NCBI GenBank assembly: GCA_963737655.1
Contig: CAVTTN010000002.1
Location: 7,520,001 to 7,584,000, forward strand
Source of the DNA: an uncultured Planctomycetota bacterium
Lineage (GTDB): Bacteria > Planctomycetota > Planctomycetia > Isosphaerales > Isosphaeraceae
DNA length: 64,000 nt
Reading direction: 5' to 3'
The notes under the pieces were generated by a model that saw only the letters and a list, made by a program, of their open reading frames with translations, was not told the origin of the DNA and did not search any database. Both the position numbers and the translations under genes were made by a program. Below, piece by piece: positions 19,763 through 45,248 of this stretch; position 1 is the first letter of the stretch, and each line of letters opens with the position of its first letter.

Positions 19763-19815
19763 TTCGAAAGATTTCGTTGATCGCGTCCGCCCCGCGCGAT
19801 TACAATCGTCGTCAT
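19763..19815 (+). promoter_or_regulatory. Putative sigma70 promoter with a degenerate BlaI-type operator (copy 3)
   Basis: TTGATC(19777)-N18-TACAAT(19801); GATTACA-AT-CGTCGTC at 19798-19813; shares ATTTCGTTGA with copies 1 and 2. Confidence 0.55.
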
Positions 19816-19924
19816 GATCCATCGGCGATCATTGAATCGTTCGGGCCGCCGGCGAATTCGACCCTCGGCCCAGGGCTCGCGAACGAACAAACGGATCGAA
19901 ATCTCCCATTTCGAGGCCCCGCTG

Positions 19925-20776
19925 ATGAGCCGGACCGCGCGATCGTGGACCTCTCTGGCGCTCCTCGCCCTCGTCCCGCCGCTGGCCCTCGCCCAGGCCC
20001 CTCCGGCCGAGAAGGCCGCCGATCCCGCCCACAACAAGTGGCTGCCGGTCCTGAAGAAGCAGGCGGAGGAATACTCGATCGTCGTCGATGCGGCCGATGG
20101 GCCGAAGACCCGGACGAAAATGGTCGCCGAGCCGTTGATGCGATGGACCCAGCCCGTCCGGGGCGGGGATGACGGCGTCCTCTGCCTCTGGACCGATCGC
20201 GGAGTGCCCGTGGTGGCCATGACCGTCTTCACCTTCCGCGCCGACACCGGCGAGCGCTGGGTCGTCCACGAGCATCAATCGCTCTCGCTCCGGCCGATGG
20301 AGGCGACCTGGCAGGGCAAGGCGATGTGGCACACCAGCGGCCCGGGGCTGACCTTCGCCCCGGTCCCCGACGCCCCGAGCCCGGCCGGTTCTCCGGCGGG
20401 GAGGCTCCGGCAGATGCAAGGCTTCCTCCGGGACGTCTCCGCCAACACGATCGACCGCAAGGGCTCGACCTGGCCGCTCCGCCCGCTCTCGAAGCCGCTC
20501 TACCGCTATGAGGGGACCGGCCCCGAGGTCCCCGACGGCGGCGTCTTCGCCCTGGTCCAGGGCAACGACCCCGAAGCGTTCGTGGTGATCGAGGCCCGAG
20601 ACGGCCAGTGGCGATTCGGCCTCGCCCGCCTCACCGACCTGGAGCTGAAAATCCGGGTCAAGGGCAAGGAGGTCTTCTCCGCCCCCTACACCACCGGCCG
20701 GGACGACGGCCCCTATCAGACGGTCGTGGCCGTCTCCAAGAATAGCGAATCCCCCGAGGACTTCACGAAGCCGTAG
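19925..20776 (+). CDS. Secreted uncharacterised protein, paralog 1 of 5
   Basis: Signal peptide; WTQPVRGGDDG, RLRQM, PLYRY, DGGVF and GNDPE. Confidence 0.8.
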   Translation: MSRTARSWTSLALLALVPPLALAQAPPAEKAADPAHNKWLPVLKKQAEEYSIVVDAADGPKTRTKMVAEPLMRWTQPVRGGDDGVLCLWTDRGVPVVAMTVFTFRADTGERWVVHEHQSLSLRPMEATWQGKAMWHTSGPGLTFAPVPDAPSPAGSPAGRLRQMQGFLRDVSANTIDRKGSTWPLRPLSKPLYRYEGTGPEVPDGGVFALVQGNDPEAFVVIEARDGQWRFGLARLTDLELKIRVKGKEVFSAPYTTGRDDGPYQTVVAVSKNSESPEDFTKP

Positions 20777-20843
20777 GGAGGGCGAACCCTCTTTGCGGGA
20801 GGCCAGGGAACCCGTTCCATCGCTTCGCCAGGGGCGAAAACCG

Positions 20844-21734
20844 ATGACTCTCCCATCCGCACTGGTCCTGCTCCTCGCGATCCCCGCCCAGGCCCCCGCC
20901 CGGGACGAGGGCGCGGGAAGCTGGCTGCCGATCCTCCGCCAGCAAGCCTCGGAGTACGCGATCGTGCCGAGAGATCCGGCCATCCGGCCGCCGAAACCTC
21001 GGCCCGACCCGATCCTCCGCTGGACCCAGCCCGTCCGAGGGGGCGATGACGGCGCCGTCTTCCTCTGGGTCACCGACGACGGCCGCCCCGCCGCCGTGGC
21101 CACGATCTTCACCTATCGCGTCCCCGACACCAAGAGGACGATCCAGCACGAGGTCCACTCCTTCCTGCCCACGGGACTCGACGCCTCCTGGCGAGGTCGT
21201 CCGATGTGGAAGGCCGACGCGCCCGGCCTGTCCTTCCGGCCCGTCCCCGATGCACCCGAGCCGGCCGGGTCCGCCGCCGCCCGCCTCCGCCAGATGCAGG
21301 CCCTCGCCCGCGAGTTCTCCGGCGAAAACGTCCACGAAAAGGCCGGCAGGAACGAACTCCGCCTGATGCCCAGACCCCTCTATCGCCAGCCCTCGACCGA
21401 TGCCGACCCGAAGGACGGGGCCCTGTTCTGCCTGGCCCACGGCACCGACCCCGAAGTCTTCCTCCTGATCGAGTCGCGGAAGGGATCGGGCGGTGTACTC
21501 ACATGGCAATACGCCCTCGCCCGCTTCTCCGACCTCGCGCTCAAGGTCCGCCTGAAGGGCCAGGAGGTCTGGAGCGTCGGGCCCGGCCAGTGGCAGCGCC
21601 GCGACGGCATCCACGCCTACTACATCGCCGAGATGGTCGATGCCGACACGCCCGAGGAGTACCGCAAGGCCGAAAAGACGGACGGAGACGGCCCGGCGCT
21701 CCCGGTCCGCCCGGGTTCCGAAGAATTTCGTTGA
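20844..21734 (+). CDS. Secreted uncharacterised protein, paralog 2 of 5
   Basis: WTQPVRGGDDG, RLRQM, LRLMPRPLYR, DGALF and GTDPE. Confidence 0.8.
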   Translation: MTLPSALVLLLAIPAQAPARDEGAGSWLPILRQQASEYAIVPRDPAIRPPKPRPDPILRWTQPVRGGDDGAVFLWVTDDGRPAAVATIFTYRVPDTKRTIQHEVHSFLPTGLDASWRGRPMWKADAPGLSFRPVPDAPEPAGSAAARLRQMQALAREFSGENVHEKAGRNELRLMPRPLYRQPSTDADPKDGALFCLAHGTDPEVFLLIESRKGSGGVLTWQYALARFSDLALKVRLKGQEVWSVGPGQWQRRDGIHAYYIAEMVDADTPEEYRKAEKTDGDGPALPVRPGSEEFR

Positions 21735-21767
21735 CAACGCCCGGGGCTCGGCGATATTTGTAGTCAC
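21716..21767 (+). promoter_or_regulatory. Sigma70-type promoter with BlaI-type operator (copy 1)
   Basis: TTGACA at 21731-21736; GGCGATA-TT-TGTAGTC at 21750-21765; 46/52 identical to the reverse complement of 45197-45248. Confidence 0.8.
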
Positions 21768-21801
21768 ACGAGGCATCTCGTCACCCTCGCGGGAGGTCCC
21801 C

Positions 21802-22758
21802 ATGCTCGGCGGAAAAGCCCCGGCGATGGCCATCCTCGCCGCCCTGGCCGCCTTCACCCCGCCCGACGATCCGCGGCCCGAGGCCGGGGTCCCGGTCCGC
21901 CGGGCCCTGGTCCTCTGCGGCCTCCCGGGCGACGAGGAACATCGCGAACACTACGGCGCGGCCGTCGAAAAGATCGCCAAGGCGCTCGTCGATCGTTGCG
22001 GGTTCGCCTCCGAGAACGTCTGGGTCCGGTTCGGCGTCGCCGCCAGGGACGGCGACGGCCCGGCGATCCGAACCGGCCGCGGCCTGTCGACTCGCGAGGG
22101 GCTCGCGGCCGACGCCGAGGCCCTTCGCAAGGCGTCCCGGCCGGGGGACGCCCTCTGGGTCATCGTCCTCGGCCACGGGCACTTCGACGGCCGGACCGCG
22201 CACCTCAACTTGCCGGGGCCCGACGTCTCGGCCCTCGAATTCGCGAAGCTGTTCGAGGACATCCCCGCGACGGAACAGGTCTTCTTCCTGACCACCTCGT
22301 CGAGCGGGTACTTCCTCAAACCGCTGTCGAAGAAGGGTCGGGTCGGGATCTCGGCCACCGAGGCCGACCTGGAAGTCAACGAGACCCGATTCGGCGCCGC
22401 CCTGGCCGACGTCCTGGCCGAGCCACCGCCCGAGGCGGATCGCGACCGGGATGGCACGATTTCCGTCTTCGAACTCTACCTCGCGGCCGTCTCCGAGGTC
22501 ATGAAGCGATTCGCCGACGACGAGCTGATCGCCACCGAGCACGCCCAGATCGACGACAACGGCGACGGCCACGGCAGCGAAATCCAGCTCCTCTTCCTCC
22601 CGCCGGACCCCGGCGGCGAGAGGCCCGATCCGAAGCCCAAGGACCCGGCGAAGACCGTCGCGAAGAAGGCGCCCGCACTCGGCCCGACCGACGACGGGGC
22701 CCTGGCCGCGAAGCTCCGGGTCAGCCAGGCGAAACCCCCGGCCGGAGGCTCCCAATGA
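21802..22758 (+). CDS. Secreted caspase/C13-like fold protein without the usual catalytic Cys
   Basis: RRALVLCG, LWVIVLGHG, FFLTTSSSG, ISAT and an EF-hand-like ADRDRDGTISVFE; GGAGG RBS. Confidence 0.6.
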   Translation: MLGGKAPAMAILAALAAFTPPDDPRPEAGVPVRRALVLCGLPGDEEHREHYGAAVEKIAKALVDRCGFASENVWVRFGVAARDGDGPAIRTGRGLSTREGLAADAEALRKASRPGDALWVIVLGHGHFDGRTAHLNLPGPDVSALEFAKLFEDIPATEQVFFLTTSSSGYFLKPLSKKGRVGISATEADLEVNETRFGAALADVLAEPPPEADRDRDGTISVFELYLAAVSEVMKRFADDELIATEHAQIDDNGDGHGSEIQLLFLPPDPGGERPDPKPKDPAKTVAKKAPALGPTDDGALAAKLRVSQAKPPAGGSQ

Positions 22759-23552
22759 GGCTCGCCATCGCCCTGATCCTGGCCCTCCCCGCCCTCGACG
22801 ACGTGGCCGGCGAGCGTCAGACGCCCGCCGAGCGGCTGGTGTCTCTCAAGAGTACGATGAAGTCTTATGAATTGACGCTCCGTCGGGACGACGCGCCCGG
22901 GAGCCTGGGAGTCCAGGAGGAGCCGGCCTTCCGAGTGGGCCGTCAGCGAGGCAACTTCGTCGATGGCGCGATCTTCCTCTGGCTCGACGACGTCGGCCGG
23001 CCCGAGGCCGCGATGGAAGCGTTCCTCCTCAGCGAGCCGGACGTTCCCAACGGCAAGTGGATTCACGAGTTCACGTCGCTCGCCACCGGGCCGATCGAGG
23101 CGACGATCGGCGGCAAGACGCGATGGTCGCCGACCGTCCCGGGCCTGGAATTCCGGGCCGTCCCCGGGGCGCCGAAGCCCGCGAACACCCCCGCCGCCCG
23201 GCTCCGCCAGATGCGCGCGATCGCCGACGAGTTCAAGGCGGACGACGATTTCGGGGGCTCGGGCTGGCTCTCCCTGCGGATGCTCACCACGCCGATCGCC
23301 CGCTTCGGCAAGACCGGGGCGGAGCCGGAAGACGGCGCCCTCTTCGCCCTCGTCGATGGGACCGACCCCGAGGTCTTCCTCTTCGTCGAGGCCCGCAAAG
23401 GCAAGGAAGGGCCAGAATGGCAATATGCTCTCGCCTCGATGGGTTGCTGGGCCGTGAAGGTCCGTCGCGACGGCAAGCCCGTCTGGGAGCTTCCGAGGCG
23501 CTCCACCGGCGATCCCTCGAAGCCTCTGTACAACTACCCCTTCTGGCCCTGA
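22755..23552 (+). CDS. Secreted uncharacterised protein, paralog 3 of 5
   Basis: ATGA overlap with the upstream gene; DGAIFLW, WIHEFTSL, RLRQM, DGALF and GTDPE. Confidence 0.8.
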   Translation: MRLAIALILALPALDDVAGERQTPAERLVSLKSTMKSYELTLRRDDAPGSLGVQEEPAFRVGRQRGNFVDGAIFLWLDDVGRPEAAMEAFLLSEPDVPNGKWIHEFTSLATGPIEATIGGKTRWSPTVPGLEFRAVPGAPKPANTPAARLRQMRAIADEFKADDDFGGSGWLSLRMLTTPIARFGKTGAEPEDGALFALVDGTDPEVFLFVEARKGKEGPEWQYALASMGCWAVKVRRDGKPVWELPRRSTGDPSKPLYNYPFWP

Positions 23553-23598: not shown

Positions 23599-24393
23599 AT
23601 GAGCGTCCTGCCCTCGTCCGCGATCCTGATCGCCGTGCTCGCCCAGGCGGCCCCCTCGCCCCGCGACGAGGCCGCCGAACGCCTGAAATTCATGAAAGAT
23701 TCGGTGGCCGTCTACGAATTCACGAGAGAATCCGGCCCGCTGAAGCTCGTCAGCGAGCCGGCGTTCCGCCTCGGCAATCAGGGCAACGGCGTCCTCGAAG
23801 GCGCCATCTTCCTCTGGACCGACCCGAAGACGGACCGACCCGGGGCCGCCGCCCAGGTGTTCCTCCACCGGAATGACCTCCAGCCCGAAGGTCGATGGCT
23901 TCACGAGTTCACGTCGCTTTCCACCGACCCGTTCGTCGCCGCCCGGGGCCGGTCCGAGCCGTGGAAGCCGGAGGGGCCGGGCGTGGTCTTCAAGCCCGTC
24001 CCCGGCGCGCCCGCCCCGGCCGCGACGCCCGCCGCCCGGCTCCGCCAGATGAGGGCCCTGGCCCAAAGCTTCAAGGCCGTGGACGACTTCGGCAATCACG
24101 GCACCTTCGAGCCGCTCCGCCTCCTCACCACGCCCGTGGCCCGCTACGGCAAGCCCGGGGTCGTGCCCGAGGACGGCGCCCTCTTCGCCTTCGTCCAGGG
24201 GACCGACCCCGAGGTCTTCCTCTTCCTCGAGCTGCGTAAGGGGAAGGATGGGCTGGAGTGGCAATATGCGTGCGCTCCCATGTCTTGCTGGCCCCTGAAG
24301 GTCTCGCGGGACAACGCCGTCGTCTGGGACGTCCCCTTGAGGTCGTCCGAGGACCCGAGCAAGCCGTTCTTCTGCCTGACCTACGTCCCCTGA
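23599..24393 (+). CDS. Secreted uncharacterised protein, paralog 4 of 5
   Basis: EGAIFLW, WLHEFTSL, RLRQM, LRLLTTP, DGALF and GTDPE. Confidence 0.8.
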   Translation: MSVLPSSAILIAVLAQAAPSPRDEAAERLKFMKDSVAVYEFTRESGPLKLVSEPAFRLGNQGNGVLEGAIFLWTDPKTDRPGAAAQVFLHRNDLQPEGRWLHEFTSLSTDPFVAARGRSEPWKPEGPGVVFKPVPGAPAPAATPAARLRQMRALAQSFKAVDDFGNHGTFEPLRLLTTPVARYGKPGVVPEDGALFAFVQGTDPEVFLFLELRKGKDGLEWQYACAPMSCWPLKVSRDNAVVWDVPLRSSEDPSKPFFCLTYVP

Positions 24394-24430: not shown

Positions 24431-25465
<1,035 letters not shown>

Positions 25466-25472: not shown

Positions 25473-26369
25473 ATGCCGTTCGACGATCGCGAGCTGATCG
25501 ACCCGGCGTTCTTCTCCCGACTCGACTCGCTGGAGCTCCGCGCCCGCTCGATCGTCGAGGGGGCGATGCACGGCCTCCACCGCAGCCCGTATCTCGGGAT
25601 GAGCGTCGAATTCTCCAGCCACCGCGAGTACGCCCCCGGCGACGACCTCCGCCACCTGAACTGGAAGCTCTACGCCCGCCACGACCGCCTGTACATCAAG
25701 GAATATGACGCCGACACGAACCTGAACCTCTACTTGATGGTCGATATCAGCGCCTCGATGGGCTGCGCCCACGCCGGGATGAGCAAGCTCCAGTACGCGG
25801 CGACCCTCGCGGCGGCCCTCGCCCACCTCGCCCTCTCGCAGAGGGACGCCGTGGGCCTGACCCTCTTCGCCGATTCCGTCGTCGCCCACCTCGCCCCGAA
25901 AGCGAAGGCCCATCAGTTCGACGAGATCCTGGCCACGATCGCCTCGGCCCCTCTGCGCCAGGCCACCGGCACCGAAAAGGCGCTCCACCAGGCCGCCGGG
26001 CTGGCCAGGCGTCGCGGGCTGGTCGTCGTCCTCAGCGACCTCTTCGGCGACCCCGAGGCGATCGGCGGCGGGCTGGACCATCTCCGCTACCTGAATCACG
26101 AGGTGATCGTCTTCCACGTCCTCGACCCGATCGAGCGCGGCCTCGCCCTCGACGGCCTGATCCGCTTCCGGGACCTGGAGACCGGCGAGACGATCACCAC
26201 CCAGGCCGAGGGCGTCCGCGACGCCTACCGCAAGGCCGTGGACGACTGGAGCCAGGCCCTCGAGATCGAGTGTCGCAAGAGGGCCATCGAGCGCGTCGAG
26301 CTCCTGACCACCGACCCGCCCGACCGGGCCATCCTCGACTACCTGGCGAAACGCGCGGCGACCCTCTGA
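25473..26369 (+). CDS. DUF58 (VWA-like) protein
   Basis: GLHRSP..G.SVEF..HREY.PGDD.R..NWK and DISASM. Confidence 0.92.
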   Translation: MPFDDRELIDPAFFSRLDSLELRARSIVEGAMHGLHRSPYLGMSVEFSSHREYAPGDDLRHLNWKLYARHDRLYIKEYDADTNLNLYLMVDISASMGCAHAGMSKLQYAATLAAALAHLALSQRDAVGLTLFADSVVAHLAPKAKAHQFDEILATIASAPLRQATGTEKALHQAAGLARRRGLVVVLSDLFGDPEAIGGGLDHLRYLNHEVIVFHVLDPIERGLALDGLIRFRDLETGETITTQAEGVRDAYRKAVDDWSQALEIECRKRAIERVELLTTDPPDRAILDYLAKRAATL

Positions 26370-26403: not shown

Positions 26404-27233
26404 TTGCGCAAGAGACCGACGATCCGATTCGCCCCGCTCCTGCTGCTCGTCCTCTCCGGGGCCGACGATCCGAAGCCGCCGAGGGCGAAGCTCATGCGCG
26501 CGATGGCCGGCGAAATCGAAGTCGCGTCCGCGGACCTCGCGACGAAATATCCGATGATCGGCGAGCCGATCTATCGGTTCGACGACCCGACTCGCAGCTT
26601 CTCCGACGGAACCGTCTGGGCCTTCGGCCCGAAGGACGGCCGACCGGAGGCGCTGCTCACGCTCTCCCTGGAGGGCGAATCGGGCGGCCTCTGGCACTGG
26701 ATCTACGAGTTCACGTCGCTCTCCTCAAGCAAGGTCTGCGCGACCGGTCCCGCCGATATCCGCTATTTGCCGTGGGTGCCGGACGAGCCGGGATCCGCCT
26801 CAAACCGTTCCCGAAGGCCGATCCTCCCGCTTCGGACGCGCCGAAACGGCTCCGCCAGATGCGCGAGCTCGCCCGCCGGTTCCGCTCCGACGAGACGTTC
26901 GAGCCCAAGCCCGGGCTCAAGCCCGAGCGCTACGAATTGCGCCTTTTGAGCCAGCCGGTGCTGCGGTATTCCGACCCCAGGAACGGCCTGATCGACGGGG
27001 CGATCTTCCTCATGGCCTACGGCCAGAACGCCGAGATCGTCCTGGTGATCGAGGCGAGGCGCGAGGGCGAACTCGCGCCGGCCTGGTCGTTCGGGGTCGA
27101 GCGGATCTCGGCGGCCGAGTCCCGGGTCAGGCTCGATGAGGCGGTCGTCGTCGAGTTCCCGAGAATCCGCGATAATGTGATGACGCGAACCTATGCGGGC
27201 TTCAGCCGGCCGAGCCCGGCCGGGAAGGAGTGA
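26404..27233 (+). CDS. Secreted uncharacterised protein, paralog 5 of 5 (frameshifted at ~26791)
   Basis: DGTVWAF and WIYEFTSL; one extra G in the GGG run at 26790-26792 joins these to RLRQM, LRLLSQP, DGAIF and GQNAE. Confidence 0.75.
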
Positions 27234-27239: not shown

Positions 27240-29186
27240 ATGAGCTTCGTCCAGGGGGGGATGCTCGCGGCCCTGGCCGCGCTGGCGATCCCGATCCTGA
27301 TCCATCTCCTGTTCCGTCGCAAGGCCCGGCCCGTGGACCTGGGCACCCTCCAGTTCCTCAAGGTCGTCCTCCGCGACACGACCCGGCGCCGGAGGCTCAA
27401 GCGGTACGTCCTGCTCGCGATGAGGCTCGCGGCGGTCGCCCTGATCGCGCTGCTCTTCGCCCGTCCCTACCTGCTCGCCCACGAGCCATCCGAGGGGAGC
27501 CGCCTCGTGGTCGTCCTCGTCGATCGATCGGCCAGCATGGGGCTGAAGGGCGGCACGTCCCCCTCCGATCGCGCGGCCAGGGAACTCCGCGAGATCGTCG
27601 CGAGATCGGGAAAAGGCACGCAACTCGAACTGGCCGCGTTCGATCGCGCCATCTCGCCGATCGCGAAGCCCTCCGACCCTGCGACGGACGCCCTGAAGCC
27701 CGGATCAGCCGGGACCGACTACGCGCCCGCGATGGCCTGGGCCCGCGACGTGAGCATTCGATCGCGCGCGAAATCCAGGGAGTTGTACATCCTCACGGAT
27801 TTGCAACGATCGGGCCTCGACCGGGGCGAATCGGTGGCGATGCCGGGCGACCTGGACGTGCATCTCACCGACTTCGGCCGTCTATACCCGAAGAACCTCG
27901 CCGTGGTCGCCGTCTCGCTCTCGTCGCCGACGATCCGCCCCCGCGACTCGACGACCGTCTCCGCCACCGTCCGCAACGCATCGCCGATGCCCGTCGAGAA
28001 GGTCTCCGTGAGGCTCCATCTCGAATGCCCCGGCAACGAGCCGATCGACCGCGAACGGGCCGTGGACGTGGACGGCAACGGCTCGGCGGTCCTCGCATTC
28101 CCGCTCACCGACCTGGACGCGGGTTTGTGGCGAGGACATGTCGAAATCGGCACGAGCGATGATCTTCCGATCGACGATCGCCGCTATTTCGCCATGCCCG
28201 TGTCACGGCCCGCGAGGGTCCTCCTGATCGACGGCGACCCCGGCGCCTCGCCCATCGAGTCGGAAACCTTCTTCCTCCGCGCCGCCCTCCGGCTCGCCCC
28301 CGAGGGCGAAACGTATGCGAAATCGCCATTCTTGACGACAACCATCGCTGCGCAGTCACCGCTGCCCGAACTCGATCCGATCGCCGTCGTGGTCCTCGCG
28401 AACGTCGGCGATCTTCCCGCAGATCGTGCGCGACAACTCGCCGAATTCGTGGCGAGGGGAGGTGGACTCGTCGTCTTCACCGGCGACCGAGTGACGGCCG
28501 AATCGGCCCGATCCTGGATCGACGCGGGCCTCGGCGTCGGACGAGTCCTCGGGGCGGAACACGCGGCCGATCGGCCGTTCCGCCTCGAATCGTGGGATGA
28601 TTCGCACCCGATCTTCCGGCCGTTCGCCGACCCCGAATCCGGAGACCTCCGCCGCCCGACGTTCCTGGCGATTACGAAGGTCGACCCCGAGCCATCGAGC
28701 CGAGTCCTCGCGCGATTCCGGGGCGGCGCCCCGGCCCTGATCGAGCGATCGGTCGGGAAAGGGCGCATCGAAATGTTCGCATCGGCCTGCGATCACGCCT
28801 GGGGCGATTGGCCCCGAGGGCGGATGTTCTTGCCCATGGTCCACCAGATCGTCGCGCAGGCGGCCGGACTGGCCGACGGCGGCCCGACTCGCGAGGCGAT
28901 GGCCGGATCGAAGGAGATTCCCGGGATTTTCGAGGAAAACGGCCGCCTGCGCGTCGTGAACGTCGATCCGTCCGAGTCGGAGCTGGCTCGGTGTTCCTCG
29001 GCCGAGTTCGCGGCGAAATTCGGGTTGCGGCTCGCCAACGCGAACCCCAGGGTCGAGGCGCCCAGGGCGGTCCGATCGCGGGCCGACGACCGCCTACGGC
29101 CCGACGAGCTCTGGCCGTGGATCGCCCTGGGACTCATCGGCCTGTTGATGCTCGAAAGCCTGCTCGCCAATCGGACGTCCGCATAA
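27240..29186 (+). CDS. BatA N-terminal / VWA / GATase-like membrane protein
   Basis: PILIHLLFRR BatA motif, DRSASM MIDAS, ILTDLQ, FVARGGGLVVF and a C-terminal TM helix with LESLLA. Confidence 0.88.
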   Translation: MSFVQGGMLAALAALAIPILIHLLFRRKARPVDLGTLQFLKVVLRDTTRRRRLKRYVLLAMRLAAVALIALLFARPYLLAHEPSEGSRLVVVLVDRSASMGLKGGTSPSDRAARELREIVARSGKGTQLELAAFDRAISPIAKPSDPATDALKPGSAGTDYAPAMAWARDVSIRSRAKSRELYILTDLQRSGLDRGESVAMPGDLDVHLTDFGRLYPKNLAVVAVSLSSPTIRPRDSTTVSATVRNASPMPVEKVSVRLHLECPGNEPIDRERAVDVDGNGSAVLAFPLTDLDAGLWRGHVEIGTSDDLPIDDRRYFAMPVSRPARVLLIDGDPGASPIESETFFLRAALRLAPEGETYAKSPFLTTTIAAQSPLPELDPIAVVVLANVGDLPADRARQLAEFVARGGGLVVFTGDRVTAESARSWIDAGLGVGRVLGAEHAADRPFRLESWDDSHPIFRPFADPESGDLRRPTFLAITKVDPEPSSRVLARFRGGAPALIERSVGKGRIEMFASACDHAWGDWPRGRMFLPMVHQIVAQAAGLADGGPTREAMAGSKEIPGIFEENGRLRVVNVDPSESELARCSSAEFAAKFGLRLANANPRVEAPRAVRSRADDRLRPDELWPWIALGLIGLLMLESLLANRTSA

Positions 29187-32685: not shown

Positions 32686-32781
32686 GGTGCAGGGAAGGCA
32701 CCCACCCCCGGATCGGGCCCCGAGCCTATCCCCTGGACGATGGCGGACCACCCCGCGAACCCGAGTTGCCCACGCCCCATC

Positions 32782-35251: not shown

Positions 35252-35301
35252 AACGATTCGCGGGCGTCTTGGAGAAGACCACCCGAAAAACCACCAAGGA
35301 T

Positions 35302-35391
35302 CACCCCGAGGTCACGAAAAGCACGGAGGAAGACGCAATAGAGGCGGCAGATTTCAGGTATTTTAGCGCCTTTTCTCGTGTTTTTATGGTC
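35302..35391. repeat. Degenerate inverted repeat with ~9-nt periodic arms
   Basis: CACGAAAAGCACGGAG on the left and TTTTCTCGTGTTTTTATGGT on the right; architecture resembles the 49.4 and 54.9 kb elements. Confidence 0.35.
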
Positions 35392-35984: not shown

Positions 35985-37715
35985 CTATTTCTTGACGTCC
36001 TTCCGGGCGGCCGTCGTCGCGGCCGAGGCCTCCGTGGCATCAATCAACCCGTCACCGTCCGCGTCGAGCGCCTCGAATTGCGCCTTCGAGCCCAGGAATT
36101 CGCGGCTCGAAAGGTCGCCGTCGCGGTTGCGGTCCATCCGGCGGAACCAGCTCGGGCCATTTCCGACCCCGCCCGCCCTCGGCCCGTCCATCGGCCGGTC
36201 GACCACCGGCCCGGCAATATTGCCCATCCCCACCAGAGACCCCCGGCCCAGGGTCAGGCCGAAGTGGTGCGGGATCTCGTCCGAGGAGACCTTGCCATCG
36301 CCGTTCCGGTCCCACGAGGAGACCCGATCGATGGTCCCCCGAAGCTCGCGCAGGCCGAGCCGGCGGTCGCGGTTCAGGTCAAGAATCGCGAAGATGGCCC
36401 GGCCCTGGTCGGCCGTGGTCAGAAGCAGGCGGCTCCTCGCGGCCTCGGTTTGCTTCTCCACAAATCCCGTCAGCTCCTTGAGATACACCTTGCCATCGGC
36501 GTCGCGATCGAGGACGTCGAACAGGCCGGCGAGCGAGGAAGGGTGGTCTTTGTCCTTCATCATCTCGCTCTTTTCGAGATATCCATTATTATCGGAATCG
36601 GCCTGGTCGAACGCGGCGACGAACGAGGCGAGGGCGGCCTCGGCGGCCCGGGCGCCGTCGTCCACGTGCACTTCCAGGCGGACCTCATCGACCGCGATCT
36701 CCACGTCTCCGCCGCCGAGTTGCTTGACGATCACCTTGGCGGGCAACGTATCTCCCGAGCCCGAAGGCCCCCGGACTGCGACCGTGGCCGCCCCGGCCGC
36801 GTCGGCCGAGAGCGCCACGGCGAGCACCAGATCGGGCGCGCTGGCGGCGAGGAATCGGCGAAGTTCCTCGATGTCGAGCCGGCCGTCGGCGTCCGCGTCG
36901 GCCTTCTGGAACCGCGCCGGTTCGATCCCGAACTCGCTGCGGGCCAATCGATTATCGCCGGCCACGGCGCCGTCGGAAGCACCTCGATCGTACCGTTTCA
37001 TCAAGAGCCGGACGGGCCGGAGCGTGGCATCCTCGCGGTCGATCTCCAGGACCGGAGGCACCGCCGAGAACCGGGCCCGGCGGGTCGAGGGGTCTTCGGC
37101 TCCCATCATGGTCGGGTCGGCGAACGGCTCAAGCTCCGCCTCGTCCACCAACTCGTCGTCATCGAGGTCCAGCTTGAGGAGACCGGCGCCGTCCTTCATT
37201 TCCGCCGGGATCAGGACTCCGTCCTTGTCCCCGTCGAGTTGATCGAACAGGGCGTCCGTCTTGCCTCCCGAGACCTTGCCGACCTCCACGCGGAAGGGAC
37301 CGAGGGCCGTCCGCAGTGCCTCCGCCAGCTCGTCGAGCGAGACCTTGCCGTCCTTCGGATGCATGTCGAGCTCGGTCCGGGGCAGGGCGGTGGCGGAGCC
37401 GTTGGCGACCCGGACGATGGTGGCGAGTGCCGACCGATCCGCCTCCTCTTTCGTGACCGTCCCGTCGCCGTCGCGATCGAGATAGGCGTGCAAAGTCTTC
37501 ACCGAGTCCATCCAGGCCGACCGGAACGGACGATCGCCGAGCGTGACCTCCAGCCGGAGGAAGATGGGCCGGTTGTCGCCCAGGAAGATCAGGTCCTGGA
37601 CCGAATCGCCCGAGGCGGGTCGCGCCATCGCGGGCGGGGACTTCGGCGTTGGCTTGTCCGCCGCAAATGCCGGGCAGGTCAGCAGTAGCGTCAGGAATGC
37701 GATGCCGCGTTTCAT
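35985..37715 (-). CDS. Secreted multi-EF-hand protein
   Basis: Signal peptide MKRGIAFLTLLL; more than 10 DxDxDG-type loops such as DRDGDGTV and DRNRDGDL. Confidence 0.88.
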   Translation of the reverse strand: MKRGIAFLTLLLTCPAFAADKPTPKSPPAMARPASGDSVQDLIFLGDNRPIFLRLEVTLGDRPFRSAWMDSVKTLHAYLDRDGDGTVTKEEADRSALATIVRVANGSATALPRTELDMHPKDGKVSLDELAEALRTALGPFRVEVGKVSGGKTDALFDQLDGDKDGVLIPAEMKDGAGLLKLDLDDDELVDEAELEPFADPTMMGAEDPSTRRARFSAVPPVLEIDREDATLRPVRLLMKRYDRGASDGAVAGDNRLARSEFGIEPARFQKADADADGRLDIEELRRFLAASAPDLVLAVALSADAAGAATVAVRGPSGSGDTLPAKVIVKQLGGGDVEIAVDEVRLEVHVDDGARAAEAALASFVAAFDQADSDNNGYLEKSEMMKDKDHPSSLAGLFDVLDRDADGKVYLKELTGFVEKQTEAARSRLLLTTADQGRAIFAILDLNRDRRLGLRELRGTIDRVSSWDRNGDGKVSSDEIPHHFGLTLGRGSLVGMGNIAGPVVDRPMDGPRAGGVGNGPSWFRRMDRNRDGDLSSREFLGSKAQFEALDADGDGLIDATEASAATTAARKDVKK

Positions 37716-39052
37716 CCCAGGACCTCCTGGATCGCCGTGGCCTTGGGATCGACGATGCGGATCGGGCGGCCCACGTCCGAGATGTTCTGCTTGCCCGGGT
37801 CGATCCCCAGGACGCGACAGACCGTGGCCAGGAAGTCGGGTACCGTCACCGGCCGATCCTTGACCGCCATGCCGTCGGGCCCGGTATTGCCGATCGCCTG
37901 GCCCCCCCGGATTCCCCCGCCCGCCAGGACCGTGGACCACGCCGTGGGGAAGTGGTCGCGGCCGGCATCCTTGTTGATCTTCGGGGTCCGCCCGAACTCT
38001 CCCATCCACACAATCAGGGTCGAATCGAGGAGACCTCGCGACCGAAGGTCGCTCATGAGGGTTCCCCAGGCCGGGTCGAGCGTCCCGCACAGGGCCTTCA
38101 CGGCGTCGAAGTTCTTCTGGTGGGAGTCCCAGCCGAATACGGTCGAGCCCTGGGCGGCCGAGAGCGTGACCTCGATGAACGGAACGCCTCGCTCGACCAG
38201 CCTCCGGGCGAGCAAACACCCCTGACCAAAAGAGTTGCGTCCGTACGCATCGCGGACCGCCGCCGGTTCCTCCTCCAGCTCGAACGCCTTCGCGGCCGGC
38301 GACCTCATCATCTTCACGGCCCGGAGGTAGGCGTCCTGATGGCTCAAGGGGGCGGCCCCGGGATGGGTCGCGAGGAAGTCTTTTGAGAGCGAAGACATCA
38401 GGTTCAGCCGGGAGTCCGCGCGGTTCGCCGTAACTCCCGGAGGCGGGTTGAGGTCCTCCACCCTCAATGAAAGCTTCGAACCCTCCGAATCTCCCAGGAC
38501 CCCCCGTTCTCCCACGATCAAGGGCGCATATTGCGGACCCAGGAACCCCGAGCTGAACGCAGCCGGGTTGAACGCCCGGAACGGCGAAACGCTGACGAAT
38601 CCGGGAAGCTCGGCCGATTCGTCGGCAAACTCCTTCGCCACCAGAGAGCCAAATGTCGGGTAGTGGATCGGTCCGGTCGGCTGATAGCCGGTCCGAAGGT
38701 TGAACGTGGCCCGGCCATGGTCACCTTCCTTCGTGCTCATCGATCGGACGATCGCCAGATCTTTCATCTGGGCCGCCAGTTGCGGCAAGTGTTCCCCGAT
38801 CGAGATCCCCGGAACCGCCGTGGCCAGGGGCTGGAATGGCCCATTATGGGCATGGCCCGGCTTGGGGTCGAACGTGTCGATCTGGCTCGGCCCGCCCGAC
38901 ATCCACAGGAGGATGCATGACTTCCGCCGTTTCGGGTCGGCCGCCGCATGGGCCGCCAGGGTCTCAATCCACCCCGAAGCCGAGGCACCGATCGCCCCGG
39001 CCGAGGCCAGTCGCAGCCATTGCCGACGAGTCAGGCGGTCCGATCGGTCCAT
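37712..39052 (-). CDS. DUF1501 protein with Tat signal
   Basis: TRRQWL, LWMSGGPSQIDTFDPKP, CLLARRLVERGV, GEFGRTP and GRDH. Confidence 0.92.
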   Translation of the reverse strand: MDRSDRLTRRQWLRLASAGAIGASASGWIETLAAHAAADPKRRKSCILLWMSGGPSQIDTFDPKPGHAHNGPFQPLATAVPGISIGEHLPQLAAQMKDLAIVRSMSTKEGDHGRATFNLRTGYQPTGPIHYPTFGSLVAKEFADESAELPGFVSVSPFRAFNPAAFSSGFLGPQYAPLIVGERGVLGDSEGSKLSLRVEDLNPPPGVTANRADSRLNLMSSLSKDFLATHPGAAPLSHQDAYLRAVKMMRSPAAKAFELEEEPAAVRDAYGRNSFGQGCLLARRLVERGVPFIEVTLSAAQGSTVFGWDSHQKNFDAVKALCGTLDPAWGTLMSDLRSRGLLDSTLIVWMGEFGRTPKINKDAGRDHFPTAWSTVLAGGGIRGGQAIGNTGPDGMAVKDRPVTVPDFLATVCRVLGIDPGKQNISDVGRPIRIVDPKATAIQEVLG

Positions 39053-39126: not shown

Positions 39127-40737
39127 TCAATGATTATGCTTAAATTCCGGGCCATTCAGCAGGGCCCAGAACACGTCCGCCAGCGCCGCCGAAAGTTCGG
39201 TCGGCGTTCCAGCCTTCTCGACGTACGCACTCAGGAAACGCAGCTCGTCCGGGGAAGGCCGGCGAGTCAGGGCGGCGAGGTAAAGGGCCTCGATCCGACC
39301 TGGCGTGTCAAGATAGGGTGCCTCGGCGATCGCCGCGAGCGTGTCGCCCGTCTCCGGGTTAGTCGCCCCGGCGACGATCTGCCCGTTCATGAGCGTAAGG
39401 GCCTGGAGAATCGACGTTTGCGCCTCGGTTGGCTTCTCGTCGCGGTTGGCGAAGAGTTCCAGGAATCGCCCCCTGGCATCGCCTCCATAGCTCATCCCGC
39501 CCTCGCCGCTTCGATAGCCCGTGGCCTGGGCCAGACTCTCGAAAAGCTGGCCGGGCGAGAGGCCCCGGACGGTCATGGCCGAGAACAGGGCCGGGGGAGA
39601 TGGGTCGGGCCGATCAACCCGGCTGGTCAGGCCGTAGGCGCGGGTTGCGGTGATGGCGCGGATCAGGTATTTCAGGTCATAATCATGGGCGACGAACTGG
39701 CGAGCCAGGGAATCCAGAAGCTCCGGGTGGGCGGCCTCGTTATCGGCGCCCATGTCATCGACGGGATCGACCAGACCCACGCCGAAAAACCTGGCCCAGA
39801 CTCGGTTTACGGCGGCTCGGGCGAAATACGGATTGGTCGGCGACGTGATCCACTCGGCCAGAACGTCCCGCCCCTCCACCCGCGGCCGCCATAGGGGCTC
39901 GATGCCATCAAGATGGGTGGCCTGCACAATTCGCGTGGTTCCAGGGATCGTCAATTCTTTCCGACCGGAGACCTCGCGAATCGCGCCGGGATTGTCGTCG
40001 GTCCCTTGCCTCTGAACCCCCGCGAAAAACGCCGCAAACCCCCAGAACTCCTCACGTTTCCACTTCGCGAACGGATGGTCGTGGCATTGGGCGCACTCGA
40101 GGCGGATGCCGAGGAAGACGCGCGAGGCCCCGGCGGCGAGGTTCTCCGGCTTCCCTTCCTTGGCGGTGTAGAACGCGACGGGAGTCGCCTCGATCCGGCG
40201 ATCAGTTCCGGAAGTTATTCGCCCACCGAGTTTTGCGGTCAGGACTTCCTTGACGATGTCGTCGTAACCGGCCTCCTCGATCACCTTCTTTCGCAACCAG
40301 GCTTCGAACGGCCACGAGGCGAAGCGAGCCTGGCCATCGGTGTCGGCCTCGGGCAAGAGCAACTGCCGCCAGAGTTCGACCGCGCGAGCCGAGTAGGCCG
40401 GACTCGCGAGGAGCCGCTCGACGAGGATCCGCCGCTTATCGGGGCTGGGGTCGTCGAGGAAATCGCGGGCCTGGGCCGCCGTGGGGATCTTGCCCACGAG
40501 ATCCAGGCTCACGCGTCGGAGATACTCCGCATCATCGGCCGGGCCAACCGGCCTGAGCTTGGATTCCGCCCATTTTGCCGAGAGCATGCGGTCAATCAGG
40601 GCCGTGAGTTCGGCCGAGTCGCGGGACGTTCGGGCCGGGTCGACGCCCTTCTTCCGGGCATCGGCCGACCGGGCCGGTTTCGGGGCGATCAAGACGGCCA
40701 GGATGGCGGCAACGAGCCCGAGGCGACGTGTTCGCAT
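39127..40737 (-). CDS. DUF1549/DUF1553 protein with one CxxCH motif
   Basis: YLRRVSLDLVG.IP, FLGIRLECAQCHDHPF, NPYFARAAVNRVW and WALLN..EF..NH. Confidence 0.92.
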   Translation of the reverse strand: MRTRRLGLVAAILAVLIAPKPARSADARKKGVDPARTSRDSAELTALIDRMLSAKWAESKLRPVGPADDAEYLRRVSLDLVGKIPTAAQARDFLDDPSPDKRRILVERLLASPAYSARAVELWRQLLLPEADTDGQARFASWPFEAWLRKKVIEEAGYDDIVKEVLTAKLGGRITSGTDRRIEATPVAFYTAKEGKPENLAAGASRVFLGIRLECAQCHDHPFAKWKREEFWGFAAFFAGVQRQGTDDNPGAIREVSGRKELTIPGTTRIVQATHLDGIEPLWRPRVEGRDVLAEWITSPTNPYFARAAVNRVWARFFGVGLVDPVDDMGADNEAAHPELLDSLARQFVAHDYDLKYLIRAITATRAYGLTSRVDRPDPSPPALFSAMTVRGLSPGQLFESLAQATGYRSGEGGMSYGGDARGRFLELFANRDEKPTEAQTSILQALTLMNGQIVAGATNPETGDTLAAIAEAPYLDTPGRIEALYLAALTRRPSPDELRFLSAYVEKAGTPTELSAALADVFWALLNGPEFKHNH

Positions 40738-40764
40738 GACCGCTTTCCTCCCTCGAAAATCCTG

Positions 40765-43700
40765 TCACCGTAACGATTTCCGACCTGAGATTCCCCCCAG
40801 GCCGGGCACGTCCCAGAGCTTGGCCGTGCCGTCGAGCGACCCGGTCGCGATCGTCCATCCATCCGATGAACAGGCCAATCCGAAGACCGCGCGTGAATGA
40901 CCCACCAATCTTGCCCGTTCCCCGCCGGTTTCCAGGTCGAACAAGGTAACGCAACCATCCCCACGGCCCGCCACCGCCAGGATTCTCCCATCTGCCGCAA
41001 TTCCCAGGGCCCGGACCGCGGCCGGAAAGCCGCCGAGGGTCAGCTTCGCTCGCCCCTCAGCCAGGTTCCAGAGCCGGGCCGTCGCATCGTGCCCTCCGCT
41101 GGCCAGGATGCGTCCGTCCGGCGAGAAGGCGAGCGTCAGGACCGAACCCGCATGACCCACGAGATCCGCAACCTCAGTCCTGGAATCGACTTCGAAAACC
41201 TTAATTTCACCAAAGGCATCCTTGCGTCCATCCCGGCCCCCGCCACCGGTTGCTATCAGCCGCCCATCAGGGCTAAAAGCCACAGCATGGAGCGAACCGC
41301 GAAACTGGTGGAGATGGGCGATTTCGGTTCGCTGGGCAATCTTCCAGAGCGACAGGACCCGATCTTCGCCGGCCGAGGCGAGGAGAGTCCCATCGGGCGA
41401 AAAAGCAAGGCTCGTCGCCCCTTCGGTCGCCGCAAGTTCCCCGTCGGGAGCGCCATCGGCGACTTTCCAGAGCCGGATCGTTCGATCCCAACTGCCAGAA
41501 GCCAAAGACTTTCCGTCGGGTGAAAAGACGAGCGAGGAGACCCCCCGCGCGTGCCCAACGAGCGTGGCGCGGACTTTTCGGGTCGCCAGGTCCCACAGGA
41601 CGATGTCGCCCGGGGCGTCATAGGCCACGGCCCCGACGGCAAGAATGGTGCCATCCGGCGAAAATGCGGTTGGGCCGAGGCATCCGAGGTCGCCCTTGAG
41701 GCTCGCCCGAGGGGATTCCCGCCGAGCACCCAGGTTCCAGAGCCGAACCGTTCCATCGCGACTCGCCGAGGCGAGGGTCCGGCCATCCGGGGCGAACGCC
41801 ACCGAGGCCACGAGGTCGCCGTGCCCCTTGAGGGTGGCGAGCTTCCGGCCCGAAGCCACCTCCCAGAGAAGCAAATCGCCGCAAGCCTGTCCTGCGACAA
41901 GGAATCGGCCGTTTGGACTGTATGCCGAGCACGTTGCGTCGGCCGCTTTCCACCCGTTCTTCTCAACGAATGTCCCAGGGTCCCATAGATGGATATGTCC
42001 GTCCCCGCCGCATGAGGCGATCGACCGGCCGTCGGGCGAGTAGGAGACGCTGGCGATGGCTCCGGCCCGGCTTACGAACGAACCGAGCCGCTCGCCGGTC
42101 TGGAGCCGGTAGAGTACCACGGAACCTGCCTCGTTCTCCGGCCGATCTCCTGTGGCAATCGCCAGTTGCGTCGAGTCTGGTGAAAATGCGACGGCGGCGA
42201 CGGTCGTGGATTGCCGGAAAGATTCTCGCGGTCGACCAGGCGTCGTCCAGTCCCAGACGAACACCTCGCCATCTGCCCCGCCCGAAGCGAGCAGGCGCCC
42301 ATCCGAACTGAATGCGAGTGATCGGACTGAACCCCTGTGTCGTTCAAGGTTTGCAACGACCTGTCCATCATCCGACCGGACGAGCCGCACCGTCCCGCTT
42401 TCGCCTCCGACGGCCAGGGTCGAGCCGTCGGGAGAAACCGCCATGACCGGCCCTCCCACGGCGAGCGGCTTGCCGAGGACCAGGCCGGTCGATGGATCGT
42501 AAATCGTGATGGAATCGCACTTTCCGGCGACGAAGACGCGGCGACCGTCCGACGAGAAGGCGACCGAACGGGCCTCGTTGGGAAAGTTCAGGATCGAGGC
42601 GGCCGAGAGGATCGGCGAGGCCGGCTCCCAGAGCCGGACTGTCCCATCATAACCTGCGGATGCAAGTTGGCGTGCCCCGGCGCGAAGCTCAGCGACGCAA
42701 CACCTTCGCCGTGGCCGGTTAACGTGGTTCGTTCGCGGCCGGTCCGTACGTCCCAGAGCTTGATCGACGCGTCCAGGCTCCCGCTGGCCAGGGTCTCGCC
42801 GCCCGGGGAGAAGGCAAGAGACAGAACCATATCCTGATGACCCGTGAGAGCCACCCGTTCTCGTCCCGTCCTGAGGTCCCAGAGACGGACCTCGCCGTCC
42901 TCGCCGGCCGAGGCCAGGGTCCGGCCGTCCGGGGCGAAGCGGACCGCTCGAATGGTGCCCGAGTGTCCCTGGAACCTGATCTTCTCACAGGACTTACGCC
43001 AATCCCATAGGATCACCGCTCGGTCGGCGCCGGCGGAGGCCACGGTTGATCCGTCCGGCCCGAACGCGACCGAGCGGACGGCCGAGGTATGGCCGGTGAG
43101 GATCGACAGCGGCGTCCCCGTGGCGGAGTCCCAGAGGCGGATCGTCCGGTCCGAGCCGGCCGAGGCGATCGTCTTGCCGTCCTGACTCACGGCCACGGCG
43201 AACACCCAGTTCGAATGGCCCTCCAGCGTGCGGACGGGTCGGCCGTCGAGGCTGCTCCAGATTCGGATGGAGCGATCGTAACCTCCAGAGACAACATGAT
43301 TTCCGTCGGGAAGAAAAGCCAGGGACGTGATGGTGTCCTCGCCCGGGATGCGGACCTGGAGAGTCCCGGTCCTGGCGTCCCGAATGATGATGGAATGATC
43401 CTCGCCGGCCGTCGCCAGGAGGCGGCCATCGGGCGAATAGGCGACCGCCAGGACGGGCATGCGGGCGAAGCCGGCCGAGGCGACCCGGTCGTCGTGAAGG
43501 AACGTGGAACCGGCCGAGAAGAGGCGAGGCTCGTCTTCCGTGGTAAGTCCAATCGGAGCGGGGGTTTGAGACTCGGCGACGGCCTTGCGAGGGCGTCCGT
43601 ACGGCAGGACGATCAGTGCGAGGATGAGCAGGCCCGCCAGCGCCCGGCCCGAGAGTCGATCGTGGATCGTCCGACGGTTGTCCAGGATGCGGAGAAGCCG

Positions 43701-44741
43701 CCGACGGATCAGCATTCGTGATTCGAATAATCCCAGGGCCGCGGCCGCCGAGGGGATGGCCGAATCGACCGTCCGGCCCACGACGGTCAGGAACCCCTCG
43801 CCGCAATCGTGTCGAGGGACATGACTTGCGGCCAGGGCCATGTCGTCGCACGCGAACTCGCGCAGTTCATCCAGGATCCAGTTGGCCAGGAGCGCGGCCG
43901 GGTGGAAGAAGAACACGGCGCCGACGAGCCTCTGGAACGTGAGCACCCACAGATCCCCTCGACGGACGTGCGCCAGCTCGTGGAGGAGGACCCAGCTCAT
44001 TTGCTTCGGCGTGAGGTCGTCTTCCAGGTCGGGCGGGATCACGACGGTGGGCCGGATCAAACCGCCGACGGCCGGGGAGGTGATCCTGGGGCTAACCGCC
44101 CAACGGATGCAACCCTTGACGCCAGAAGCCTTTCGAAGGGCTTCGAGGTCGATCGCGAGGCATTCGGAGGCGTCTTCCAGGGGGATGGCCTCGCGAAGCA
44201 GACGGCGGAGCGCGAGGACCGATCTCGCGAATCGACCGATCAGCAGCGAACAAACGGCCGCCCATCCGATCATGAAGAGGGCCGGCAGTTGGATACCAGG
44301 CGCCGGAGTTTGGGCCAGGTCGGGCCGAGGCGAGGGATCGCCTCCAGGCTCTGCGGGCCGAATGGCCTCGACGGGCACGGCCGTGGCGGCCACGATCGGC
44401 TCGGGTTCGGGCACGGCGATCACCACCGGGTCCTCGGAGGGGAGGACTTCGGGGACGGTCTCGACCGGGGGAGCGGGCCGGCTCCATTTCGAGGCCCGGA
44501 CCGCGGCCGATCGAATCGAGGCGGACGTGATCGTGTTCCAGGGGACGGGGATCGGCAGGGCCAGCTTCAGCAACACCAGAAGGAACAGCCCGTACGCGAG
44601 TTGCGCCGACATTCTCCGACGCAAAGGGAGCCAGATCGCCAGGACGACCGCCAGCACGAGCGACGCTTCGACCAGCGATCGCAGGACCAGCGAGGCCCAG
44701 ACCGCTCCCCACGCGTTGAGCGTCTCGACGAGGGCGGTCAT
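40765..44741 (-). CDS. BlaR1-like M56 metallopeptidase fused to 21 WD40 repeats (frameshifted at ~42676)
   Basis: HELAHVRRGD and REFACD plus TM helices; one extra base in the CCCC run at 42675-42678 gives PGARQLASAGYDG and a continuous ORF of ~1325 aa. Confidence 0.88.
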
Positions 44742-45160
44742 GGCGCCTCCTCACCCTCCGGCCCTGGCTCCTCGTCCTCGCCCCGGGCGTGCTGGTCCAG
44801 GACTTCGCGGAGCTGGGTCAGGTCCTCGGGAGAAAGTTTGCTCTTCTTCATCATGTAAAGAAGCAGCTTTCCGTCCATGCCTTCCAGGGTGTTATTCAGG
44901 AGGGTGTCGGCGGCTCCGGCGACCGACTGCCAGGCGGGGCGGGCGGGTTTGTACAGGTAGCTCGTGCCCACGGGCGTGGCGGTGAGGTGCCCCTTGTCCA
45001 CGAGCCGGCGCAGGAGGGTCTTCGTCGTGGTCGGGGTCCAGCCGTGGACCCGCCCGGCCTCCTCGTACACGTCCCGGGCGGCGCAGCTCTTGTGCCGCCA
45101 GACGATCTTCATGACTTTCCATTCGGCGGCCGTCAGCGGCCGGGGGGCCTCGCGAGCCAT
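44738..45160 (-). CDS. BlaI/MecI/CopY family transcriptional repressor
   Basis: LTAAEWKVMKIVW, WTPTTTKTLLRRLVDKG and LSPEDL..LR; stop overlaps the M56 start. Confidence 0.93.
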   Translation of the reverse strand: MAREAPRPLTAAEWKVMKIVWRHKSCAARDVYEEAGRVHGWTPTTTKTLLRRLVDKGHLTATPVGTSYLYKPARPAWQSVAGAADTLLNNTLEGMDGKLLLYMMKKSKLSPEDLTQLREVLDQHARGEDEEPGPEGEEAP

Positions 45161-45196
45161 TCTTCGGGCGTCCCGGAGTGTGACGAAATCAGTCGG

Positions 45197-45248
45197 GTGA
45201 CTACAAATATCGCCGATCGGCCGGAGGTGTCAACGAAATTCTTCGGAA
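45197..45248 (-). promoter_or_regulatory. blaI promoter with BlaI-type operator (copy 2)
   Basis: On the minus strand TTGACA...GGCGATATTTGTAGTCAC ending about 37 bp before the blaI ATG; near-identical to 21716-21767. Confidence 0.8.

Follow-up and report, generated by a model that had tools for sequence, protein, structure and literature searches.

A BlaI/M56-WD40 pair and a shared promoter/operator element in a conserved planctomycete cassette joining a MoxR/vWA operon to a DUF1501 operon

The DNA analysed (the window) was a stretch of 64,000 nucleotides from an uncultured member of the Isosphaeraceae (Planctomycetota), corresponding to G000:C2:7520001-7584000 in a genome of 7.63 Mb assembled in three contigs. 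Close homologues bear source labels such as Isosphaerales and Singulisphaera, in line with a soil-type planctomycete of the Isosphaeraceae kind as host. A first-pass annotation, made from the letters alone, had proposed that a block between positions 19763 and 45248 forms one envelope-directed system under the control of a BlaI repressor and an M56 sensor protease with a WD40 region. A Pfam scan of 25 window proteins agreed with every gene named there and bore out the gene content of two operons, one of 11 genes on the + strand and one of five on the - strand, which make up a 16-gene block and are separated by a 733-base gap of 56% G+C. Both operons carry the same promoter/operator element, which is kept together with the genes in relatives, and co-regulation of both by this BlaI appears very probable from the sequence.

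A weak promoter (TTGATC-18-TACAAT; 19763..19813, +) carrying the upstream half of the shared promoter/operator element lies before the + operon. The operon opens with paralogue 1 (19925..20776; start placed by eye, the longest frame opening at 19814), a member of an exported family without a name, and paralogue 2 (20844..21734; start by eye). Copy 1 of the shared element (21716..21788, +) follows, consisting of a dyad beside the -35 hexamer, TTGACA-16-GATATT and a dyad after the -10 hexamer. Downstream are an exported protein of caspase/legumain fold (21802..22758) with the histidine kept, the catalytic cysteine absent and two calcium-loop-like motifs; paralogue 3 (22755..23552); paralogue 4 (23599..24393), modelled as a tandem helix-plus-sheet repeat without a clear fold match; a MoxR AAA+ ATPase (AAA_3; 24431..25465) with Walker A and B intact; a DUF58/vWA protein with a DxSxS motif (25473..26369); paralogue 5 (26404..27233, in two frames in the assembly); a membrane protein with BatA double anchor, vWA and GATase1-like regions (27240..29186); a DUF4175-like membrane protein with a long helical part (29258..32685, in two frames; 1167 residues in the relative G003); and a vWA plus GATase1-like membrane protein (32740..35251, in two frames; 830 residues in G003). 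All are on the + strand, with intergenic gaps of -4 to 96 bases.

The - operon begins with copy 2 of the element (45176..45248, -) before blaI (44738..45160), which encodes a BlaI-family repressor. It continues with an M56 zinc protease (motif HELAH) carrying a WD40 sensor region (40765..44741, in two frames; 1325 residues in G003), a DUF1549-DUF1553 (PSCyt2-PSD1) protein with a CxxCH motif (CAQCH; 39127..40737), hereafter the PSD protein, a DUF1501 protein with a twin-arginine motif and sulfatase/alkaline-phosphatase likeness (37712..39052) and an exported protein with eight EF-hand loops (35985..37715), all on the - strand. No beta-lactamase or penicillin-binding protein family was matched among the 25 window proteins scanned.

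The longest inverted repeat between 17 and 48 kb of the window was formed by the two copies of the element (21711-21788 versus 45176-45253), which are 82% complementary over 78 bases; TTGACA-16-GATATT is present in both. The 72-base promoter element occurs at only two places in the 7.6-Mb genome, before blaI and inside the + operon. The 18-base downstream core likewise gave two genome matches at up to three mismatches, both of them the window copies, and with a matrix built from 33 copies of other genomes these two loci alone passed (scores 88 and 77, threshold 8). The site at 19763 fell below this threshold. The first-pass annotation had placed the same element in both operons: both copies were found, but the strong + copy adjoins the third gene (caspase fold, 21802), with paralogues 1 and 2 upstream of it.

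The consensus of 44 copies was ttCCGAagaAttTCG-TTGACA-N13-GGCGATATTTGTAGTC-ataCGACttGnTtCGTAAcC. It describes a promoter of sigma-70 type flanked and overlapped by 16-base dyads TACGAC-N4-(G/T)TCGTA, which is common to both operons and to scattered paralogue genes in relatives. We read three dyads TACGAC-N4-GTCGTA, beside the -35, over the -10 and after the -10; a dyad centred on GTC(A/G)-NN-CGAC is a possible alternative. Across the 44 copies the 13-base spacer varies freely and the dyads are kept. The downstream dyad was left out of the search pattern, so its conservation (CGA in 44 of 44 copies, the TCGTA-like half at 70-98% per base) is independent evidence for a protein-binding site. By analogy with known pairs we infer that the protein bound there is BlaI. 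A Mycobacterium BlaI consensus was not confirmed in the available text of PMC8457756 or PMC12565901, and a scan with it at two mismatches gave mostly noise.

Conservation was followed in 121 genomes of the same family; these are kin and not independent, so that the counts are descriptive and not statistics. The cassette is present in 15 of them. The strict element pattern was found in 14 of the 121 genomes (12 of 53 genera) and in none of 300 genomes of other families, a BlaI match of at least 73% in 14 (one partial) and an orthologue of the caspase-fold protein in 15 (two in pieces), and together the three mark the same 15 genomes. In the mapped cassettes the element precedes blaI in 15/15 and the MoxR operon in 14/15, the exception being G036, of which only 6 kb of contig was examined. 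The two halves lie on one contig in 13/15, mostly convergent and head to tail in G003 and G375, and in G411 and G377 the element stands directly before the caspase-fold gene, the same as in the window. Synteny and a shared motif in relatives had been proposed as the check on the joint system, with unlinked operons lacking a common motif as the adverse outcome, and these figures come out on the side of the proposal.

Six strict copies of the element lie outside cassettes, and the five that were checked all stand directly before a paralogue gene. In G035, which has 38 paralogue matches, the element lies directly upstream of six of the 20 distal paralogue loci examined, which suggests a spread of promoter-plus-gene units. 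About 20 paralogue genes of this genome (L102-L121) were seen alone in unrelated neighbourhoods. Four minimal loci from planctomycete records (L074, L075, L077 and L081) consist of BlaI, M56-WD40, paralogues and the caspase-fold gene alone; no MoxR orthologue lies within 10 kb of them.

Among 201 genomes of the class, the paralogue family was found in 17, the DUF58 orthologue in 16 and both in 13, and the DUF58 orthologue is present in each of the 13 genomes with at least two paralogues. Eight genomes from three further families (G445, G449, G453 and G522; G469, G484 and G553; G500) carry the genes head to tail in the order PSD, DUF1501, EF-hand, moxR, DUF58, BatA, DUF4175-like and then vWA, with paralogues interleaved, so that linkage of the operons in relatives extends here to their union in one string. 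Six of the eight have a BlaI of another clade, an M56 protein with one propeller and a caspase-fold gene; G500 has M56 and no BlaI match, and in G469 neither was seen. A different palindrome, AGAC-N5-GTCT, lies between -35 and -10 in these distant cassettes, with 19 matches in 14 loci versus 9.1 expected, a count that is not an independent test since the palindrome was derived from the same loci. Nine of the matches stand before blaI, six before the PSD gene and four elsewhere; none was found in G469, in L080 or in the window. The two groups thus share the gene set and differ in regulator and operator, which is the strongest argument that these genes form one regulon. With the kept element and the linkage, this fusion in distant families supports the unit under BlaI/M56-WD40 control that the first-pass annotation had put forward, the binding by BlaI being the inferred part. 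In a tree of the DUF1501 trio (DUF1501, PSD and EF-hand) the cassette copies fell into two groups, which might reflect recruitment of the trio on two occasions, and a single clade was not rejected (approximately unbiased test, p-AU 0.061); for MoxR as one clade p-AU was 0.68.

The repressor matched PF03965 (E 2.7e-28) and the protease PF05569 (E 4.9e-32), with HELAH in all family orthologues aligned and four hydrophobic segments; as a pair they scored below all NCBIfam cut-offs for BlaI, MecI and BlaR1. The WD40 region follows the last hydrophobic segment, the position that the outward sensor takes in BlaR1. As WD40 propellers offer surfaces that bind proteins or polymers, our guess is that the inducing signal is a periplasmic macromolecule or a partner protein. 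A penicillin-binding domain is found in about 6% of M56 proteins, and non-canonical BlaIR pairs are common (10.64898/2026.04.08.717257, available part). The argument that a missing beta-lactamase or PBP gene points to a non-classic output was therefore correct as to the absence and overstated as to its weight, such absence being the rule. A second BlaI (G000:C2:5278790) is 60% identical to that of the window, with a similar recognition helix and a different promoter, and cross-talk is possible.

The DUF58 protein and both vWA proteins keep DxSxS (three motifs), and BatA and TIGR02226 matches were obtained. A MoxR-vWA-beta-propeller ternary conflict system was considered and rejected: bpMoxR gave 36 bits versus 204 bits for AAA_3, no bpX or effector family was matched, and the WD40 repeats sit on the M56 sensor. 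The caspase fold suggested by the first-pass annotation was confirmed by a model with a predicted local distance difference test score (pLDDT) of 89 and a Foldseek match to legumain and metacaspase (E 1.8e-8). The catalytic histidine is present in 123 of 123 aligned rows; at the nucleophile position, which was assigned by motif and not by superposition, there is serine in 81, proline in 23, alanine in 15, glutamine in four and cysteine in none, so that an active caspase was rejected. The protein is probably a binding protein, and an invariant serine two residues past this position leaves open some unusual catalysis.

The five paralogues are 26-55% identical to each other, have signal-peptide-like starts (judged by eye) and are the only five matches to their family in the genome. 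The family comprises 3,123 clusters at 50% identity and has no Pfam or NCBIfam match; conserved Arg, Asp, Glu and Trp residues lie mostly in the second half. The model of paralogue 4 (pLDDT 93.7) consists of two like halves (98.4% probability) and gave no Foldseek match at E 0.001; the best structural comparison reached Z 6.9 with a root-mean-square deviation of 3.0 over 91 of 264 aligned residues, and likenesses to cystatin, PepSY and LolA/LprG were too weak to name a family. The glycosidase beta-sandwich, also considered, gave no clear match over most of the domain. Matches in the ESM Atlas were unnamed planctomycete clusters only. A fusion search gave three longer proteins among 8000 scored, too few to use: a tandem duplicate, a fusion to a PF00144 serine hydrolase and one to carboxypeptidase-regulatory repeats. 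The serine hydrolase case (P0391, which also has DUF3471) is single and possibly a read-through artefact. The first-pass annotation saw the family of five correctly and underrated its role, since scattered copies in relatives carry the same element; the family is predicted to be the output most specific to this regulator.

The DUF1501 protein resembles sulfatases (E 1.2e-5) and keeps Asp and His residues, which we take to be of the kind that bind metal in the sulfatase superfamily. The PSD protein keeps CxxCH in 9/9 rows, and no solved structural relative was found for it. The genome holds about 50 DUF1501 and PSD loci and eight MoxR-DUF58 operons. A second PSD-DUF1501-EF trio (G000:C2:2109693-2133507; L142, L143), 58%, 71% and 48% identical to that of the window, faces a different MoxR-DUF58-BatA-vWA operon with prenyltransferase-like and NPCBM genes, an arrangement also present in G355. 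DUF1501/PSCyt modules have been described without function or regulator (PMC3542564), WD40 genes and DUF1501 are frequent planctomycete neighbours (PMC5587647), and DUF1501 also accompanies chitin synthase genes (PMC5122149), as stated in the accessible parts of these papers.

The gene set, the linkage, the shared element and the intact motifs are the parts read directly from sequence, and the best explanation of the whole is a single regulon, induced by a signal, whose products build something in the envelope or periplasm, to which we give a probability of about 0.45. By analogy with BlaI/BlaR1, the penicillin switch of staphylococci to which the pair is related, BlaI dimers would occupy the dyads; a ligand or partner protein would bind the outward-facing WD40 propellers and activate the intact M56 protease, and cleavage of BlaI would release both operons and blaI itself. 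By analogy with MxaRSACKL, MoxR with DUF58 in the cytoplasm would then drive the membrane-anchored vWA/GATase-like and DUF4175-like proteins, which would assemble exported proteins or supply them with metal. Among possible clients the DUF1501 metallo-enzyme with its haem-c partner is the likeliest; the EF-hand and cysteine-less caspase-fold proteins would act as calcium- and peptide-binding helpers, and the paralogues would be exported binding proteins that have diversified and are linked to this regulator. That the DUF1501-PSD-EF trio is a client of this particular MoxR machine is a tentative part of the scheme, rated at little more than one chance in three; in the first-pass annotation the CxxCH, EF-hand and DUF1501 proteins had been offered as possible MoxR clients, and both modules occur without each other.

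Several observations weigh against such a single regulon. The halves lie on different contigs in G386 and G410, and G410 has no M56 gene between blaI and PSD, although the element is kept (G410:C92:18659-19411, L098). Fourteen of the 20 distal paralogue loci of G035 have no upstream element. Six sister operons with caspase-fold, MoxR, DUF58, BatA, DUF4175-like and vWA genes (G363, G377:C3, G552, G035:C1, G437 and G385; L144-L156) have neither paralogue nor trio within 40 kb; the one in G385 is preceded by a distant BlaI-like gene. EF-hand homologues were found in 100 of the 201 class genomes, and among 20 non-cassette loci, which include the full trio in 14, a MoxR match was found in only one within the 20 kb examined. 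G553, which has the full cassette elsewhere, also carries a free operon of BlaI, M56-WD40 (1215 residues), PSD, DUF1501 and EF-hand (G553:C1:6021582-6030450, L172). In 30 kb of G469 neither a blaI gene nor the palindrome was seen. Two unrelated blaI genes of G000 carry the AGAC-N5-GTCT palindrome or one shorter by one base, which fits a BlaI site and also allows control by a BlaI paralogue. The cassette thus joins three modules, each able to stand alone.

The strongest rival, with perhaps one chance in four, is that these modules are co-regulated and mechanically separate: an envelope-stress or nutrient regulon would induce a general MoxR/vWA chaperone operon together with the DUF1501 trio and the paralogues, none being the client of another. 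The finding of each module alone, the many further MoxR-DUF58, DUF1501 and PSD loci of the genome and the small envelope regulons controlled by other non-canonical BlaIR pairs (10.64898/2026.04.08.717257, available part) would all fit. Against it, a constant set of 11 gene families is retained in four families despite changes in order, strand and regulator, the EF-hand gene and moxR are directly adjacent in the eight distant genomes, and the second trio faces another MoxR operon in both G000 and G355.

Somewhat less likely again is that the paralogues are the real cargo, as receptor or surface subunits of variable type that the MoxR/vWA proteins put in place, and that the trio belongs to the sensor, producing or passing on the inducing signal jointly with the WD40 propellers. 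Genomes with several paralogues track the DUF58 clade without exception (13/13), and the paralogues are interleaved between machine genes at changing positions; of the 20 non-cassette loci, four have a WD40 protein directly upstream of the trio and two have a BlaI-M56 pair next to it, in keeping with the frequent WD40-DUF1501 neighbourhood in planctomycetes noted in PMC5587647. Sister MoxR operons without any paralogue and the minimal loci with paralogues and no nearby orthologous MoxR speak against this, as does the position of the trio in the distant cassettes, where it adjoins moxR and not the sensor.

A bolder form of the one-regulon reading, to which we would give only about one chance in five, is a switchable envelope machine in which the WD40-sensor protease frees a MoxR/vWA motor that assembles a haem-c and sulfatase-fold enzyme loaded with interchangeable paralogue adaptors. 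The number of paralogues, whose fold may be new (up to 38 matches per genome), and the scattered operator-carrying copies would then set the range of substrates or signals, and the link between the parts would have persisted, or been formed anew, with two different pairs of BlaI and operator; the odds given apply to all of this jointly. If true, this would give a first functional context for DUF1501/PSD modules.

Decay of the system in this genome, with the four frameshifts real and the sensor truncated, is improbable. Four of the 16 genes (paralogue 5, DUF4175-like, vWA/GATase and M56-WD40) are in two frames, the downstream dyad departs from the consensus in both window copies and the 19763 site is degenerate. 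We read the four frameshifts as long-read errors. The rate equals the background of the genome, as 18 frame changes were counted in about 140 kb of same-family paralogous genes elsewhere, a sum that leaves out the cassette's own copies (roughly one per 8 kb), versus four in about 24 kb of cassette. The breaks sit at short G/C runs and are without in-frame stops, identity to G003 stays at 53-85% on either side of each, and the DUF4175-like, vWA/GATase and M56-WD40 genes are single reading frames in G003. The DUF4175-like gene is also in two frames in G553:C1:1882316-1886317 and G484:C29:37154-41335, where the second frame opens with a signal-peptide-like stretch and matches the C-terminal 220 residues. 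Lastly, the idea that the element is a promoter copied in a local rearrangement and not an operator, the operons being mobile-island neighbours without joint control, would suit the 82% likeness of the window copies and the patchy distribution (15/121) and is very improbable, given a spacer free to vary between dyads kept in 44 copies, copies before paralogue genes megabases away and on other contigs, and a different palindrome at the corresponding positions in loci with another BlaI.

Around the block, an upstream DUF1501 gene (45324-46790; 37% identity to the cassette DUF1501) and a DUF4396 gene were considered as parts and rejected, neither lying beside the block in relatives. The former belongs to a sugar-acid string (45324-52644, -; UxaE, isomerase-like, amidohydrolase, lactate-racemase-like and this DUF1501 gene) that points towards blaI; no terminator was found between it and the blaI promoter, and read-through is possible. 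The gap between the operons (35252-35984) held neither a paralogue remnant nor a conserved frame. Its GC content is low, its - strand has a promoter-like site (35658-35630), and short stretches of it recur at several further sites of the genome; in relatives this position is often occupied by paralogue genes.

The cassette is conserved and, apart from one large family without a name, its parts are of known kinds. Dozens of DUF1501/PSD pairs and many MoxR-DUF58-vWA operons, whose functions are open, are present in planctomycete genomes (PMC3542564, part available), and the cassette links one such pair and one such operon to one repressor and its defined operator. With one repressor over the whole set, deletion of blaI should switch the set on and make function, complexes and clients testable; near-complete genomes with the cassette (one to three contigs) are G411, G500 and G553. 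It also defines a large exported family without Pfam or clear fold match and is an example of a regulon that persisted through an exchange of its regulator and operator. In agreement with the first-pass annotation, no description of the gene combination was found in the literature searched (mostly open papers, without supplements), and figure S14 of PMC3542564 (DUF1501 neighbourhoods) may show part of it.

Compared with known systems, the caspase-fold protein shares fold and histidine with the clan CD peptidases (legumain C13 and metacaspase C14) and differs in the absent cysteine. For the MoxR/vWA part, the Bat and Rhizobium RL3499-RL3502 operons are comparison sets in addition to MxaRSACKL, and a tetratricopeptide repeat (TPR) subunit is a feature of MxaK/BatC; no TPR family was matched in the Pfam scan of the cassette. 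MxaR, MxaS and the vWA proteins are needed for calcium loading into a periplasmic enzyme, methanol dehydrogenase (PMC12276312, available part). As in MxaRSACKL, moxR stands beside DUF58 and two membrane-anchored vWA genes, with exported metal-binding proteins in the same unit, but no pyrroloquinoline quinone dehydrogenase was found in the Pfam scan of window proteins. The cassette adds DUF4175-like, GATase1-like and caspase-fold proteins to the Mxa and Bat sets, and, unlike MxaRSACKL, its MoxR clade has sister operons without the rest of the cassette.

The DUF1501/PSCyt/PSD1 modules of the Planctomycetes-Verrucomicrobia-Chlamydiae group (PMC3542564, in part) likewise have a twin-arginine DUF1501 beside a CxxCH-bearing PSCyt2-PSD1 protein and a WD40 neighbour; the cassette differs in having no PSCyt1 match and an EF-hand protein as third gene. 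Its module is tied to a regulator and a MoxR operon, whereas MoxR, BlaI and DUF58 have no mention in the main text of that paper. With BlaI/BlaR1, MecI/MecR1 and non-canonical pairs such as CenIR of Clostridioides difficile (10.64898/2026.04.08.717257, available part) the cassette shares a repressor of the Penicillinase_R family, encoded upstream of a membrane protease of the M56 type with HExxH, dyads over the pair's own promoter and a small envelope-directed regulon. In place of the C-terminal penicillin-binding domain of canonical BlaR1 the sensor has WD40 repeats, a domain that is not among the labels in the figure legend of 10.64898/2026.04.08.717257. No beta-lactamase or PBP gene is linked, and the two element copies of the genome precede blaI and the caspase-fold gene. 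By sequence, the pair fits the non-canonical BlaIR-like type represented by CenIR, with another sensor and a dyad operator over its own promoter; unlike BlaI/BlaR1 or CenIR, its output would be a set of 14 genes together with scattered paralogues.

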